Positions 10,721-46,627 of a stretch of 46,627 bases of DNA are shown here, piece by piece. Positions within the stretch are counted from its first letter, which is position 1; the number at the start of each line of letters is the position of its first letter. The notes beneath the pieces were generated by a model, which saw only the letters and a list, made by a program, of their open reading frames with translations, was not told the DNA's origin and searched no databases. The stretch comes from a virus (lineage: Duplodnaviria; Heunggongvirae; Uroviricota; Caudoviricetes): the IMG/VR virus record IMGVR_UViG_2541047706_000005, positions 1-46,627 of that record; one strand, given 5' to 3'. Made by a program: the position numbers and the translations under genes.

Positions 10721-11437
<717 letters not shown>

Positions 11438-41712: not shown

Positions 41713-41733
41713 ATGCCTAAATCCGGAGGAGAC

Positions 41734-44640
41734 ATGGCACTAACCCTTTTGGCTACAAACAACGCAGAAAGCACGCTGGCTTCTGCTATCAGCGCAACCG
41801 ACACGTCGCTGATCGTTAGCGCTGGAACTGGTGCCGAGTTCCCTGATGCTGTGGCAGGCGAGAGCTACTTTAAACTCACTCTCACCGATGCCGCCACCGG
41901 CTCACAGGTTGAGATCGTGAACGTGACAGCCAAGGCTGGGGACATCTTCACGATTGAACGCGCACAGGAAGGAACGATGGCGCGTGCATGGGCGGCCAAC
42001 GATATGGTTGCCAATATGATGACCGCTGACACGCTGAATGTGATCGCACAATACACGCAGCAGGCCGGGGAATCAGCAGCACAGTCAATTGAGGCGGCTA
42101 ATAACGCCTCTGAATATGCAAAGAACAAATATACATTCTACAAAACCGCCGGCGATCCTGATGGCACCATTGCGGGCCTGGCGGCGACAACTGACGGACA
42201 GTCGTTCTGGGTAGCTCAGGGGCCAGATGCGCTTTCTGCTGCATGGCAGTATCAAAACAATGCTGGCGTGGCCGTATTGCAGGCAAAGCAGCCAGGCACG
42301 GCAGCCATAACCGGGACAATCCGCGAATTCCCCACGCTGGAGGCGGCACAGGATGATGCCGATGCCGGCAATATTCCTACAGGTTCAACTGCGTATTATC
42401 GAAGCGCTGACGACGAAACTCTTGCGATTGAGGTCATTAACACTTCAGGAACGCTGCAGCCTACTGGACGAAAAATGCCATCCGCAATGCCAATGGGTTA
42501 CCAGTCTGCTACAGCTGTGAGTAGCGGTGCGGCTAATACCATTGCTATCACTATCCCCGGATTATTAGTGGACGGAAGCTTAATTTATTTTCTGTCCCCT
42601 ATATTGAACACCTCATCAGTCAATGTGACTGTAACTGATGCTAAGGGTAATTCTGTAATAAGAGCTGTACAGAAACAAAATAACGCGCCATTAGTCGGAA
42701 GTGAATTGCTGCTAAACCAGCCAGTATTAATGGAATTCCGCACTGGGACTGCTAACAATTTTGTCCTTGTGGCATCCGGCCCAGTAGCTGCTGAACTTGC
42801 GTCAAGAATTTCCACGCTTGAATTAAATAGCGTAGCGTTATTGTCTGGCGTTGCTAATACTGCGGACGCCTACACCGCGTCAGCGTCAGCGATACCAGGC
42901 CTGGTTGCCTCTGACCGCGTTTTCCTTTTCACTCCGAGTGCGACGAACACGACACGGACGCCGACCTTATCCGTGAATGGCGGCACTGCGCGCCAGATCA
43001 AACAGGCGAATGGTACCAACGTCGCAGCGGGAGACCTGGTCTCTGGCTACCCTTATTTATTAAAATTCAATTTTGCATCGGCTGACTTTCGTATGCTCAC
43101 ATACCCAGCGGACCGGACGCGTCTGCTCAGCGGCCAGCAGAAGGCCACCGTAACCAGTGACGCAACAAGCCCGAACGCTATATCTTTAACAATCCCGGGC
43201 CTTATCGCGGACGGCACACAAATCACATTCGAGCCAGCTGTCACCAATACCGGGGCGGTGACGCTGCTAATCACCAACATGTATGGCGACACCGTGACTC
43301 GCACCCTGATGAAAGGGGCTAACACTCCTCTCGTCGGTGGTGAACTGAAGTACGCCATGCCGGTTTCTATCATGTTCAGGGGGGCTCCACAGAACAACTT
43401 TAAGCTCCTATATGCTGGCGACCCTACCACGGATATACAGACCCTATCGAACGACGTTACGACGCTCAAGGGGTCGCTGACAGACCCTTATGCTGCTCTG
43501 GCGGATAAACTCGTGGGCACCGGGGTATCATCAGACCAGTCACCATTCGGTACTATAACTTGGTCCGCGGGGGTTAAGAGCGTCACTAAGCGGCAGATCA
43601 TTTGTACGTCTGTCGGGTCTTCTGTTGGCGTTGGGGCCGGCTCTACTGGCGGTGGTGCGGCAGGTGCCGCTTATGCACCGAACACACTGTTCGTCAACGC
43701 CTTGAAGGAAGAGCTTAAACAGTACGGCGAGTTTGACGTCATCGATGACAACCAGTGCATACCAACTCAGGCGATTCAGCAGTTCGCTGCCCAGCTAGCG
43801 AATTCGCCTTATTCAACCTCCGACTTTGTTTTGATTGTAGGGGGGATGAATGATGCGCCAGTTGGTAACTTCAACATGGGGCGCACATTCCCCGGTCAAC
43901 AAACGTCTCTCGAGTCGCTGGTAGACTTGTGTCTGGCACGAGGAGCGATTCCAATCATTTGCACTACTCCACATCATAATGTGGAAATGTCTCAGACGTA
44001 CCCCACAATCCCCGGTGGTAACCCGCTGTTCTGGCCGTTCAGGACATATAATGTCACAAGTACATATGTCTTCGACGCCGTTGCAAATACCATCACGCAG
44101 AGTAACTTTGCTAACCCGAATTATGGCGGCAATATTCTGAAGCCGGGGCATACTCTGCGCGTAGAAAGTGGAGACAATATCGGCAACTATACTATCACGG
44201 CCATTTCCTCTGACCGGAATACCATAACCGTCCAAGAGACAATCCCGGTAAGTGGAAGCTACTCGACAACGGTCAGACACTTTAACCTGCAGTCCATCGC
44301 TGAGGATATTCTTTACCCTGCACCGTCGGTTTCCTTTGTAACAAAAGACTGGTCCGGTAGCGGCGTTAAGGTACAGGGAGATGTGCGGTTCGAAATGGTG
44401 AATAATATGCAAAGGGTCGTCGCACGCAAAAAAGGCGCGTTCCTCGCAGACTGTGAAAAGTCGTTCTTTAAGTATGGTGTAGAGGTTGGTGGTTACTCGT
44501 CGGTATATAACGTCCCAGCTGGAAACTACAATCACATGAACGATAACGGGTACACAGTAACTTTCGACTACACGCTGAAAGTCGCAGCAAGGAAGATTGC
44601 CAATCTCATATTCGGAGATAAATATTACTCTGCAGCATAA
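41734..44640 (+). CDS. Tail fibre protein with three internal repeats and C-terminal SGNH/GDSL-hydrolase-like domain
   Basis: N-terminal domain shared with second fibre; three approximately 90-aa repeats (IPGL..DG...PLVGGEL...NF.L); C-terminal blocks GSSVG and GGMNDAP. Confidence 0.65.
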   Translation: MALTLLATNNAESTLASAISATDTSLIVSAGTGAEFPDAVAGESYFKLTLTDAATGSQVEIVNVTAKAGDIFTIERAQEGTMARAWAANDMVANMMTADTLNVIAQYTQQAGESAAQSIEAANNASEYAKNKYTFYKTAGDPDGTIAGLAATTDGQSFWVAQGPDALSAAWQYQNNAGVAVLQAKQPGTAAITGTIREFPTLEAAQDDADAGNIPTGSTAYYRSADDETLAIEVINTSGTLQPTGRKMPSAMPMGYQSATAVSSGAANTIAITIPGLLVDGSLIYFLSPILNTSSVNVTVTDAKGNSVIRAVQKQNNAPLVGSELLLNQPVLMEFRTGTANNFVLVASGPVAAELASRISTLELNSVALLSGVANTADAYTASASAIPGLVASDRVFLFTPSATNTTRTPTLSVNGGTARQIKQANGTNVAAGDLVSGYPYLLKFNFASADFRMLTYPADRTRLLSGQQKATVTSDATSPNAISLTIPGLIADGTQITFEPAVTNTGAVTLLITNMYGDTVTRTLMKGANTPLVGGELKYAMPVSIMFRGAPQNNFKLLYAGDPTTDIQTLSNDVTTLKGSLTDPYAALADKLVGTGVSSDQSPFGTITWSAGVKSVTKRQIICTSVGSSVGVGAGSTGGGAAGAAYAPNTLFVNALKEELKQYGEFDVIDDNQCIPTQAIQQFAAQLANSPYSTSDFVLIVGGMNDAPVGNFNMGRTFPGQQTSLESLVDLCLARGAIPIICTTPHHNVEMSQTYPTIPGGNPLFWPFRTYNVTSTYVFDAVANTITQSNFANPNYGGNILKPGHTLRVESGDNIGNYTITAISSDRNTITVQETIPVSGSYSTTVRHFNLQSIAEDILYPAPSVSFVTKDWSGSGVKVQGDVRFEMVNNMQRVVARKKGAFLADCEKSFFKYGVEVGGYSSVYNVPAGNYNHMNDNGYTVTFDYTLKVAARKIANLIFGDKYYSAA

Positions 44641-44974
44641 GGAATTATCATGGCTTTTAAAATTTCAGCAGTAAAACTGTCCAGATTTATTATCTCGGAG
44701 GATTTCTGTGTGAAAAGGATATCGGTATTGACCTCATTTACTCAGTAGAAAGCGTCAGGCAGGGTGATGCAGGTCAAGTTAAAGCCTCAGTATCTGTTCG
44801 ATATAATGATGCGTCCAGAGTTAACGCTGGAGAGTATGCGGTAACTCTGGACACTTCGTCATCAAAACCGTGGACAGAACAGGCTGAGCAGCAACTTATG
44901 CAAGCTGAAGAGTTTGCTGGGGCAGTTGTCCTGTAACCACAAAAAAAACCTACGCAGACTGAACGGGGTTGACT

Positions 44975-45022
44975 GCCCTCCGATAAAACTACTGTATATA
45001 ACAACAGTGTTTATCGGAGGGC
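44975..45022 (+). promoter_or_regulatory. LexA (SOS) box CTGTATATAACAACAG nested in a 13-15-bp perfect inverted repeat, overlapping a promoter
   Basis: CTGT-N8-ACAG at about 44992..45007; flanking arms gccctccgataaa / tttatcggagggc; TTGACT upstream; ggaggg RBS and ATG downstream. Confidence 0.6.
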
Positions 45023-45027
45023 AGATC

Positions 45028-45267
45028 ATGCTTCGACAGTCAGACATCGCCGCGGCTTTCCGCGAGTCCATTTTGCGCAGTTCCAAGGGGTTCCAGTACC
45101 TCCACACCCGCGACTTCGTTACCGCGCTTCGCCGGCGTGGCATCCATTTTTCCGAGGTGGAGGCGAACTCCTGGATCGCACGCGAGCAGACGTATTTCGT
45201 CGATAAGACGCCGGACCATAGCGAAAACAGGCTGTGGATGATGGCCAACATGGGGAGGGTGATCTAA
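45028..45267 (+). CDS. Small protein (79 aa) of unknown function, putatively SOS-regulated
   Basis: Start MLRQSDIAAAF with RBS; within ORF-track frame 44914..45267. Confidence 0.5.
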   Translation: MLRQSDIAAAFRESILRSSKGFQYLHTRDFVTALRRRGIHFSEVEANSWIAREQTYFVDKTPDHSENRLWMMANMGRVI

Positions 45268-45584
45268 TGGGATTCCCTTCACCAGCGACGGACTACGTTG
45301 AGCAAAGGTTGTCTGTTAACTCGATCTGCAATGTCGGCCCAAACACGCTAGTTTTCGAGCGATCTGGCGGTTACGTTGTGCTGGATATCTCCCTGAAGCC
45401 AAAGCAGGGTAGTCAGGTTCTTATCCAGCACGGCGGCGGGACGGAGCTTGCCACGCTGAGAGGAAAGTCACTGATTACTGAAGATGGTGAAGCGATCGAG
45501 GGCGAAGCCCTGGACGATGTTACTGTCATCGGCGTCGTGACGTTTACTATCTGCGATGTTCGTTCCGATAATTCTATTATTTAA
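45267..45584 (+). CDS. UmuD'-like protein lacking the N-terminal arm and apparently lacking the catalytic Ser
   Basis: Begins MGFPSPATDYVEQRLSVN, aligning with UmuD from its Cys24-Gly25 cleavage site (CGFPSPAADYVEQR); SGDSM region reads RSGGYV. Confidence 0.55.
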   Translation: MGFPSPATDYVEQRLSVNSICNVGPNTLVFERSGGYVVLDISLKPKQGSQVLIQHGGGTELATLRGKSLITEDGEAIEGEALDDVTVIGVVTFTICDVRSDNSII

Positions 45585-45595
45585 CTGGGGTATAT

Positions 45596-46627
45596 ATGGC
45601 GATGAAGCTATTAGCCAATAATAACGCAAAGAGTGTTCTCGCTGCGGGTATTAGCGCGTCCGCTACCGTTATTACCGTGGGTACTGGAGCGGGGTCTTTA
45701 TTCCCGTCCCCTGTATCTGGGCAGAGTTATTTCAAATTAACGATAACCGACGCGGCCACGAAAACAATTTCTGAAATTATGCACGTCACGTCTGTATCCG
45801 GTGACGTGATGACAGTAATTCGTGGTCAGGAAGGAACTACGGCACGCGTATGGTCAACGAATGACATTGTCGCGAATTTAATGACCGCCGGATCATTGTT
45901 GTCGTTCCTGCAGATCAGCAATAACCTGTCAGAAATTAAAGATGCCGGTGAGGATGCGATAAATGAAGCCCGTTATAACCTCGGAATATCTGATTCCTCT
46001 GGTTTTGTCGGGCGTTCACTTGGCGCTCCAAAAGCTTTCTATGCAAACGGAACCTATACGCGATCTCCTCTGGCCCGTTATGCAAAAGTAACGTTGACCG
46101 GTGCCGGTGGCGGCGGTGGCGGCTGCCAGGCCTCCAACAATACAGAAACCTTCTCCGGTGCTGGCGGCGGCGCGGGCGCGACCATTATCGTATGGGTTGA
46201 CCTGTCTGCTGCCAGTTCTTATGCGATTACTGTCGGCAAGGGTGGTAAGGGCGGAGTTGGCGCAGTAAGTGGTGCGGATGGTGGGGCCACCTCGTTTGCC
46301 AGCCTGTTCTCAGCTCCTGGCGGGAAAGGAGGAGTGAAGTCAGGCGTGTCCAATACCGCCGGCGGCGCCGGAGGTACGGCGGCGACCGGAGATATCAGGA
46401 TCAACGGTGGTACCGGCTCAGATGGACAGACAGGCTCAAGCCTTCTGACGGGCAACGGCGGGGCGTCGTATTTTGGCGGCGGTGGCCGGGCGGGTTCTCA
46501 GGCCGGTATTGCTGGCGCAGCTCCCGGATCCGGTGGTGGTGGCGCGTATGACCTTGGGTTTACCGGTACGGCATTTACCGGTGGTGATGGTGCTACTGGC
46601 ATGGCGATCGTGGAAGAATTCGCGTAA
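45596..46627 (+). CDS. Second tail-fibre protein (paralogous N-terminus, Gly-rich C-terminal domain)
   Basis: N-terminal about 100 aa alignable with the first fibre; C-terminus rich in GGxGG repeats. Confidence 0.65.
   Translation: MAMKLLANNNAKSVLAAGISASATVITVGTGAGSLFPSPVSGQSYFKLTITDAATKTISEIMHVTSVSGDVMTVIRGQEGTTARVWSTNDIVANLMTAGSLLSFLQISNNLSEIKDAGEDAINEARYNLGISDSSGFVGRSLGAPKAFYANGTYTRSPLARYAKVTLTGAGGGGGGCQASNNTETFSGAGGGAGATIIVWVDLSAASSYAITVGKGGKGGVGAVSGADGGATSFASLFSAPGGKGGVKSGVSNTAGGAGGTAATGDIRINGGTGSDGQTGSSLLTGNGGASYFGGGGRAGSQAGIAGAAPGSGGGGAYDLGFTGTAFTGGDGATGMAIVEEFA

Follow-up and report, generated by a model that had tools for sequence, protein, structure and literature searches.

The stretch of DNA analysed here (the window) comprises the 46,627 nucleotides (nt) of IMG/VR virus record IMGVR_UViG_2541047706_000005 and is a prophage with lambda-type immunity which carries, at the far end of its late region, a two-gene cassette downstream of a predicted LexA (SOS) box. 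The first open reading frame (ORF1) encodes a protein of 79 amino acids (aa) and the second (ORF2) a 105-aa protein related to UmuD' and to the phage protein HumD. The features of the cassette are as follows:

44969..44974, plus strand: -35-like hexamer TTGACT, read from the sequence (relatives have TTGATC at the homologous position)
44973..44987, plus strand: left arm of an inverted repeat, CTGCCCTCCGATAAA, containing the anti-Shine-Dalgarno motif CCTCC
44990..45009, plus strand: 20-bp LexA (SOS) box TACTGTATATAACAACAGTG, the first hexamer of which, TACTGT (44990-44995), doubles as a -10-like element
45010..45024, plus strand: right arm of the inverted repeat, TTTATCGGAGGGCAG, containing the ORF1 Shine-Dalgarno motif GGAGG (45017-45021), 6 nt before the ATG
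45028..45267, plus strand: ORF1, 79 aa, conserved helical protein, PHROG 3893
45252..45259, plus strand: Shine-Dalgarno-like sequence of ORF2, GGGGAGGG, within the 3' end of ORF1
45267..45584, plus strand: ORF2, 105 aa, pre-truncated UmuD'/HumD-like protein without the Ser-Lys dyad, PHROG 3469

Several observations of the first-pass annotation of this locus stand. The SOS box lies inside a perfect inverted repeat, its TACTGT hexamer overlaps a promoter-like element, and the two genes form a coupled pair, sharing one base at a TAATG stop-start junction (45265-45269). As that annotation had also noted, the cassette is placed between two tail-fibre/spike genes and has no UmuC partner nearby, since no umuC was found in its flanks in the window or in the fetched flanks of the related loci for which annotation or ORFs were inspected.

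ORF2 begins, with MGFPSPATDYVEQR, at the exact point where UmuD is cut to yield UmuD', as had been proposed, and its residues 2-14 match residues 25-37 of UmuD at 12 of 13 positions. An in-frame GTG located upstream (45234) is not used as a start in the family alignments, and no N-terminal segment precedes the Gly of MGFPSP, so that the Ala/Cys-Gly self-cleavage site is not present. Methionine aminopeptidase removes Met before Gly; with Gly as residue 2, ORF2 should therefore expose the mature UmuD' N-terminus. The protein matches the 'UmuD-like' family phrog_3469 (E = 1.5e-46), and a profile of 38 diverse members of its family matches residues 25-137 of UmuD (8gmt, 1umu) with E = 1.6e-10, the most conserved part of the family being the arm MGFPSPAxDYxE. 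In the profile alignment an 11-residue deletion corresponds to UmuD 59-69 (DSMIDGGISDG), Ser60 included, Lys97 and Lys98 of UmuD align with Ala62 and Thr63 of ORF2, and no conserved Ser or Lys is found at the dyad positions across the 38 family members. The loss of the Ser-Lys dyad was thus borne out by alignment to UmuD; the catalytic Ser is indeed lost as the first-pass annotation had read by eye, not through substitution within an RSGGYV block but through the 11-residue deletion. The AlphaFold2 (AF2) model of ORF2 (predicted local distance difference test, pLDDT, of 75) returned UmuD' as top Foldseek matches in the PDB (1i4v, 1ay9 and 1umu; template modelling score, TM, 0.57-0.61, probability 1.0), followed by the C-terminal domains of LexA and lambda CI, suggesting that ORF2 keeps the beta fold of LexA/UmuD'-type C-terminal domains. 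The profile alignment and the AF2/Foldseek comparison agree with the earlier description of a pre-truncated UmuD'-type protein devoid of the dyad. In one 141-aa member of the short family (P0277), the deleted core is preceded by an N-terminal arm like that of UmuD, including a Cys-Gly site, FIRPAELREIIALTLFSDSMQCGFTSPAADYVE; this protein may represent an ancestral state or have arisen by recombination of the phage gene with a host umuD.

Enterobacterial SOS boxes follow the pattern TACTG-(TA)5-CAGTA, with the core CTGT-N8-ACAG; the LexA box of the window contains a match to this core, CTGTATATAACAACAG, at 44992-45007. Two such cores occur in the window against 0.55 expected, and at least two were obtained in 11 of 100 shuffles; the match alone is statistically unremarkable and its weight rests on conservation among relatives. 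In 69 of 84 related loci drawn from viral contigs and phage records, a CTG-N10-CAG box is located at 50 nt or less from the ORF1 start, and the commonest box, TACTGTATATAAAAACAGTA (27 of these 69 loci), is identical to the sequence upstream of Escherichia coli K-12 umuD, the box of the window differing from this umuDC operator at 2 of 20 positions. Of 56 upstream variants, nearly all have TTGATC 17 nt upstream of the box hexamer TACTGT, which is the arrangement of the K-12 umuDC promoter region, and the relatives display a -35 element, spacer and -10 element with the operator over the -10 element and start site. The regulatory region shared with K-12 umuDC reads ATTGATAGCC ... TATTGATCTGC, 17 nt, box ... 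GGCAGAT ... ATG, its -35 side being also given as ATTGATAGCC ... TTGATCTGC, 17 nt, TACTGTATATAAAAACAGTA. Because of the box identity and the alignable flanks, the cassette is seen to carry a umuDC-type promoter and operator, homologous to the E. coli umuDC regulatory region. In the window, the TTGACT-TACTGT spacer is 15 nt long, a 2-nt loss relative to a related locus (L079), all other variants seen having TTGATC and 17 nt, and a generic promoter scan of the window did not call this element.

The box is also kept outside the closest relatives. In a second lineage, found via a protein 38% identical to ORF2 (P0280), the box TACTGTTTATCCATACAGTA is present in 71 of 73 loci, and LexA boxes were likewise found at the Erwinia phage 59, mEp390, HK140, HK225 and Citrobacter plasmid loci. 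Among the 15 loci without a box near ORF1, at least 8 have one common upstream sequence. One of them, L053, has an intact box (815-832) directly followed by a group II intron in sense orientation (833-2744) within the predicted 5' untranslated region of ORF1; the intron (Rfam RF02005, 186.6 bits) starts with GTGCG and contains a 495-aa reverse-transcriptase ORF (1197-2684), and ATTTATCGGAGGGCAGATCATG resumes after it. The same upstream sequence is found in L004, L009, L038, L054, L055, L056 and L063, the intron itself being read in L053 only. The idea of a subgroup without a LexA box was rejected in view of the intact box and intron of L053. The LexA control put forward in the first-pass annotation is strongly supported by this phylogenetic footprint together with the umuDC operator homology, and the cassette is most likely under LexA repression.

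Conservation of the coding sequences was also considerable. The ratio of nonsynonymous to synonymous substitution rates (dN/dS), computed against the window's allele, is 0.105 for ORF1 and 0.097 for ORF2; both genes are real and under purifying selection (dN/dS of about 0.1). At E <= 1e-5 the ORF2 family numbers 1510 protein clusters, and when representatives are taken at 50% identity it counts 213 clusters. The cassette itself is represented by about 1,500 protein clusters at 90% identity and occurs in 150 of 5,426 complete E. coli genomes as well as in many prophages and phage-plasmids of Klebsiella, Enterobacter, Raoultella, Citrobacter, Salmonella, Pantoea and Erwinia. Records usually label it hypothetical or, wrongly, S24 peptidase. 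LexA box, ORF1 and ORF2 are found together in at least three lineages with only 35-40% protein identity between them, across which length and architecture are constant. A decaying remnant of a captured umuD gene, without present function, could account for the deleted active site, the missing Pfam S24 match and the shortened promoter spacer of this copy; such decay is contradicted by the dN/dS of both genes, by the number of clusters at either level and by the constant length and architecture, making this explanation very improbable.

The reading preferred here, to which a probability of about 0.5 is given, is that ORF2 acts as an SOS-induced, pre-processed accessory or modulator of the UmuC-containing DNA polymerase V (Pol V), which it may either support or inhibit. 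The cassette would then be a prophage 'moron' operon under LexA repression, which arose from a umuD-type gene and kept the promoter and operator of that gene. In the lysogen, LexA would occupy the box overlapping the -10 element and the start site, and DNA damage would, through LexA cleavage, allow transcription from a start inside the box and translation of ORF1 and ORF2 as a coupled pair. Removal of Met would give the mature UmuD' N-terminus with neither RecA*-stimulated cleavage nor a protease site being needed, and the product would retain both the N-terminal arm, which lies next to the UmuC active site in Pol V models, and a UmuD'-like beta core. Like the longer HumD of P1, ORF2 would act on host UmuC once the SOS response starts and alter the copying of damaged host and phage DNA during induction, with ORF1 as an SOS-co-expressed companion, frequent and not obligatory.

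Several observations weigh against this Pol V accessory role. P1 HumD and HK140 gp28 pass the PF00717 cut-off of 23.3 bits (36.1 and 28.4 bits respectively), whereas ORF2 does not, giving no PF00717 match even at E <= 1. Against the HumD family model NF051876, ORF2 reaches 48.2 bits for a cut-off of 120, its residues 1-101 aligning with positions 1-121 of the 129-position profile. With a score below the HumD cut-off and no Pfam S24 match, functional equivalence with HumD is not assured. The spacer of 15 nt instead of 17 may leave this copy weakly or poorly expressed, and ORF1 is without an informative homologue, its fold matches being weak and resembling helix-turn-helix (HTH) proteins.

The residues by which UmuD' would contact UmuC provide a further point on the same side. 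In a published Pol V model obtained with AlphaFold, the end of UmuC extends the sheet of the UmuD' dimer by one strand and the UmuC C-terminal carboxylate is held by UmuD' S36, T71 and K73, with E69 pairing with the side chain of Lys422 (PMC11791011). S36, T71, K73 and E69 correspond to Ser60, Thr95, Lys97 and Glu93 in UmuD numbering. All four are gone from ORF2, Ser60 being deleted and Glu93, Thr95 and Lys97 being replaced by Gly58, Glu60 and Ala62. In the same model the N-terminal arm of the other subunit reaches the UmuC active site (PMC11791011), and according to work cited there an armless UmuD' dimerises and cannot support mutagenesis (PMC11791011). An arm that is kept next to docking residues that are lost fits a Pol V accessory that binds differently as well as an antagonist.

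A Pol V antagonist or decoy was accordingly weighed, in which the ORF2 arm, or heterodimers of ORF2 with host UmuD or UmuD', would occupy UmuC without forming a productive mutasome, so that SOS mutagenesis or the UmuD2C replication checkpoint would be damped and the induced phage allowed to replicate. Besides the retained arm and the lost holding residues, it would be favoured by the replacement of Asp91, Glu93 and Phe94, which contact RecA*, by Gly56, Gly58 and Thr59, and by the length of the family, shorter than every functional UmuD' homologue examined. The contact residues come, however, from a computational model and not from a solved Pol V structure, and the family occupies the same genomic slots as HumD, annotated in the P1 record as functionally complementing UmuD', which suggests a like-for-like replacement; an antagonist is thus considered rather unlikely. 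A wider proposal, also doubtful and put slightly lower, is that the phage hijacks or antagonises Pol V by means of the short UmuD'-like protein, with or without ORF1, the host-identical arm of this protein fitting into UmuC beside the active site and its remodelled core having lost its hold on the UmuC C-terminus. Were it true, the prophage would, at induction, shut down or redirect SOS mutagenesis of the host or the UmuD2C replication checkpoint, and ORF1 would count as an SOS protein overlooked so far, found with full-length HumD as well.

Another alternative places the target in RecA* or in repressors. The uncleavable S24-fold ORF2 would bind in the groove of the RecA* filament, or else associate with CI, LexA or UmuD through their C-terminal domains. 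In either way it would modulate the induction of the prophage or the timing of the SOS response, perhaps acting in trans on further prophages too, and ORF1 could then be the active small regulator. In the RecA*-UmuD structure obtained by cryo-electron microscopy, the RecA-contacting residues of UmuD are Tyr52, Leu54, Phe94, Phe18, Asp91 and Glu93 (PMC9926225), position 54 being Val in our own reading of the UmuD sequence. Apart from the three replacements given above, the Phe18-containing arm is absent from ORF2, and a UmuD-style docking in the RecA* groove is unlikely with contact residues that are not conserved. The cassette moves moreover among phages with unrelated immunity regions, and the evidence on the ORF1 fold is weak. 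The repressor of the window (237 aa, 10721-11434, minus strand) contains HTH_3 and Peptidase_S24 domains (PF00717, 100.4 bits) and is presumably nearly identical to lambda CI; in keeping with the first-pass annotation it is predicted to be a lambda-type, self-cleaving CI with no need of an antirepressor. Altogether, a RecA*/co-protease or repressor modulator seems unlikely, more so than the Pol V antagonist.

ORF1 belongs to phrog_3893 (E = 2e-40), a family without assigned function counting 360 protein clusters, and no Pfam, NCBIfam, PADLOC or PDB match was obtained for it in sequence and profile searches. Its AF2 model (pLDDT 75) consists of five helices. In the second lineage, a 79-aa ORF1 homologue stands directly upstream of the UmuD'-like gene in 73 of 80 loci, 35-38% identical in a gapless alignment (phmmer E of about 1e-13), and ORF1 followed by a UmuD'-like gene is the arrangement of Erwinia phage 59 and E. 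coli phage mEp390 too. In HK140 the homologue (gp27) precedes a full-length HumD (gp28) with the same TAATG junction, and in HK225 (L174) it is followed by a DNA invertase gene (1501-2408) in place of ORF2. HumD and the short form are each seen both with and without ORF1, and ORF1 is seen with an invertase as well; P0296, at first sight a fusion of ORF1 and ORF2, appears to result from a frameshifted gene call. An obligate complex of ORF1 and ORF2 was rejected since all these combinations occur, and from this distribution ORF1 appears to be a frequent, ancient and non-obligatory companion.

Some further observations concern ORF1 homologues. At P0125, P0200/P0236, L083 and HK225, the place of ORF2 is taken by a DNA invertase, or by the HTH_7 fragment from the C-terminus of one, which either follows ORF1 or is fused to it; this points to recombination between the cassette and a tail-fibre invertase gene. 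The 79-aa homologue of mEp390 (L170, NC_019721; 1762-2001, plus strand) is unannotated, RefSeq having instead a 42-aa hypothetical gene on the opposite strand (1795-1923), probably a mis-annotation, and that of Erwinia phage vB_EhrS_59 (L171, 1757-1999) is annotated 'DNA polymerase V' without a supporting note. ORF1 as a UmuC fragment or mimic of the UmuC C-terminus (...LLRVK compared with ...MGRVI) was rejected, the hhalign probability against UmuC being 0.05 and the C-terminus of the Erwinia homologue being different, and so was a likeness to ImpC/DinI, suggested by the impCAB operons, for which neither sequence, profile nor fold gave support.

The small overlapping two-gene operon, its position near the prophage end, typical of morons and defence cargo, and the membership of ORF1 in no family of known function could also suit an SOS-triggered effector unrelated to Pol V, namely a toxin-antitoxin, abortive-infection or superinfection-exclusion pair built on a UmuD'-like scaffold. 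Nevertheless, no PADLOC match was found for ORF1, ORF2 or the downstream gene and no Pfam toxin or antitoxin match for ORF1 or ORF2. The short form alone in a Citrobacter phage-plasmid and ORF1 with a full-length HumD in HK140 are also a misfit for an obligate toxin-antidote pair, and a UmuD' arm that hardly varies suggests that the partner is a conserved host protein. Such an effector is considered improbable, somewhat more so than the RecA* or repressor modulator.

The arms of the inverted repeat are 15 nt each, 100% complementary and 22 nt apart, with the LexA box between them, the 2-nt spacer loss of the window being what creates the perfect 15-nt repeat. As RNA, 44955-45045 folds with -48.5 kcal/mol (z = -8.95) and the -35 region pairs with the Shine-Dalgarno motif and the AUG. 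Complementarity of the box flanks is kept in 57 upstream variants, with a mean predicted free energy (dG) of -24 kcal/mol compared with -15 kcal/mol when the left flank is shuffled, and z < -2 in 45 of the 57. For the outer helix TGATCTGCC/GGCAGATCA, 85.5% of cells are paired, as compared with 28-48% with the partner slid. Covariation of the repeat was not above that of shuffles, RNAalifold predicts the box palindrome only, and an Rfam scan of the cassette gave only sub-threshold chance matches. The K-12 umuD leader also has the core ATCTGC/GCAGAT. The repeat may act at the RNA or at the DNA level. A transcript starting inside the box would not contain the left arm, and the hairpin could thus silence translation only on read-through late transcripts.

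The genes on both sides of the cassette are:

41713..44640, plus strand: 975-aa tail spike/fibre protein with a GDSL/SGNH-like domain, upstream
45596..46627, plus strand: 343-aa protein with a glycine-rich domain, downstream

Their N-terminal 125 aa are 50% identical (E = 2e-32). DNA 99.7% identical is present in two phage records (OZ035745 and OZ035751) and in E. coli 20KM2222, where the host genes ybhB-bioA come directly after the glycine-rich gene. Between the tail-spike gene and the cassette, a stretch of about 330 nt (44641-44968) contains no intact plus-strand ORF of 33 aa or more, only a 32-aa ORF (44650-44748), and closes with an A8 run (44941-44948); it may be the remnant of a tail-fibre assembly or accessory gene. 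At its 3' end ORF2 contains a sigma-70-like match (45543-45572; TTTACT, 18 nt, GATAAT), which lies 24 nt before the glycine-rich fibre gene and could serve as a separate promoter for that gene.

Should ORF2 support or block Pol V, damage-induced mutagenesis would be changed in clinical Enterobacterales exposed to SOS-inducing antibiotics, which bears on the evolution of resistance. ORF2 also represents a natural 'minimal UmuD'' that separates the function of the N-terminal arm from the former protease cleft, and ORF1 is flagged as an uncharacterised family of proteins with predicted SOS regulation.

Compared with E. coli UmuD/UmuD', ORF2 has the same predicted fold, and the regulatory region shares the -35 element TTGATC (in relatives), the spacing, the operator and the GGCAGAT leader. 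Unlike UmuD, ORF2 has no N-terminal 24-aa arm, Cys-Gly site, Ser60/Lys97, conserved RecA*-contact residues or downstream umuC, and unlike umuDC the cassette has an extra gene, ORF1, between the promoter and the umuD'-like gene. In Acinetobacter, UmuDAb and DdrR associate a UmuD homologue with an adjacent small lineage-specific protein in the DNA-damage response (PMC11332147). This likeness is an analogy only, and no Acinetobacter phage match was found for ORF1; in contrast to ORF2, UmuDAb is a repressor that cleaves itself and binds DNA through an extended N-terminal region, and umuDAb and ddrR are divergent instead of forming one operon. Prophage operons under an SOS box and outside the immunity region, 186 tum and Gifsy dinI-gfoA, encode antirepressors. 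The cassette differs from these in that ORF1 matches no antirepressor family in Pfam, NCBIfam or PHROGs and ORF2 none in Pfam or PHROGs, and in the self-cleaving CI predicted for the window.

The closest known systems are found in the HumD family, of which P1 HumD, N15 gp26, phiKO2 gp23, HK639 gp28 and HK140 gp28 are members. Like ORF2, they are the products of orphan phage genes without an adjacent umuC and start with MGFPSPA, with no cleavage needed. LexA boxes precede the HumD genes of P1, N15, HK639 and HK140, that of P1 being annotated. In N15, HK639 and HK140 the gene stands after the tail-fibre genes and before int/att or par, the slot of mEp390 (tail fibre, then the gene, then int/att) being as in HK639 and HK140, and in P1 humD stands before phd-doc. 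P1 HumD is said, in 1999 work attributed to McLenigan, to replace UmuD' in UmuC-dependent mutagenesis. ORF2 differs from HumD by being about 24 aa shorter, having lost 11 aa around what was the active site and roughly 9 aa from its C-terminal half, and by lacking the Lys that HumD keeps, and ORF1 is absent from P1, N15 and HK639. HumD of P1, N15, HK639 and HK140 (129-133 aa) ends with ...SGEFDDCPVI, and a tail of this DDxPVI type is present in many members of the short family (for instance SDDCPVI in P0267 and NDDCPAI in mEp390), the tail in the window being SDNSII.

Two observations on the surroundings of these genes may be added. On Citrobacter freundii plasmid pCF5125-2 (L175, 3001-3929), a short form with a GTG start and a LexA box, TACTGTATATAAAACCAGTA, and without ORF1 is followed directly by a phd-like antitoxin gene and then by another small gene, in the order of humD-phd-doc in P1. 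In HK140 (L173, 1149-1415), mEp390 (L170, 1409-1675) and HK225 (L174, 1162-1449), a minus-strand gene for a DinI/MsgA-like RecA-filament-binding protein diverges from the same LexA-box intergenic region as ORF1 and the UmuD'-like gene, and together these genes make up a small 'SOS island'. No DinI gene occupies this position in the window.

The first-pass annotation had regarded an SOS-induced module in the late region as unexpected, a view that does not hold given the LexA-box HumD genes known in P1 and, in the same slot, in N15, HK639 and HK140. On sequence grounds, ORF2 is best placed as a shortened branch of the HumD lineage, and a LexA-controlled gene in this slot is a known pattern. The cassette is a widespread offshoot of the HumD-type SOS moron to which one more conserved gene has been added, a variant of the known HumD genes and not a system of a new kind.

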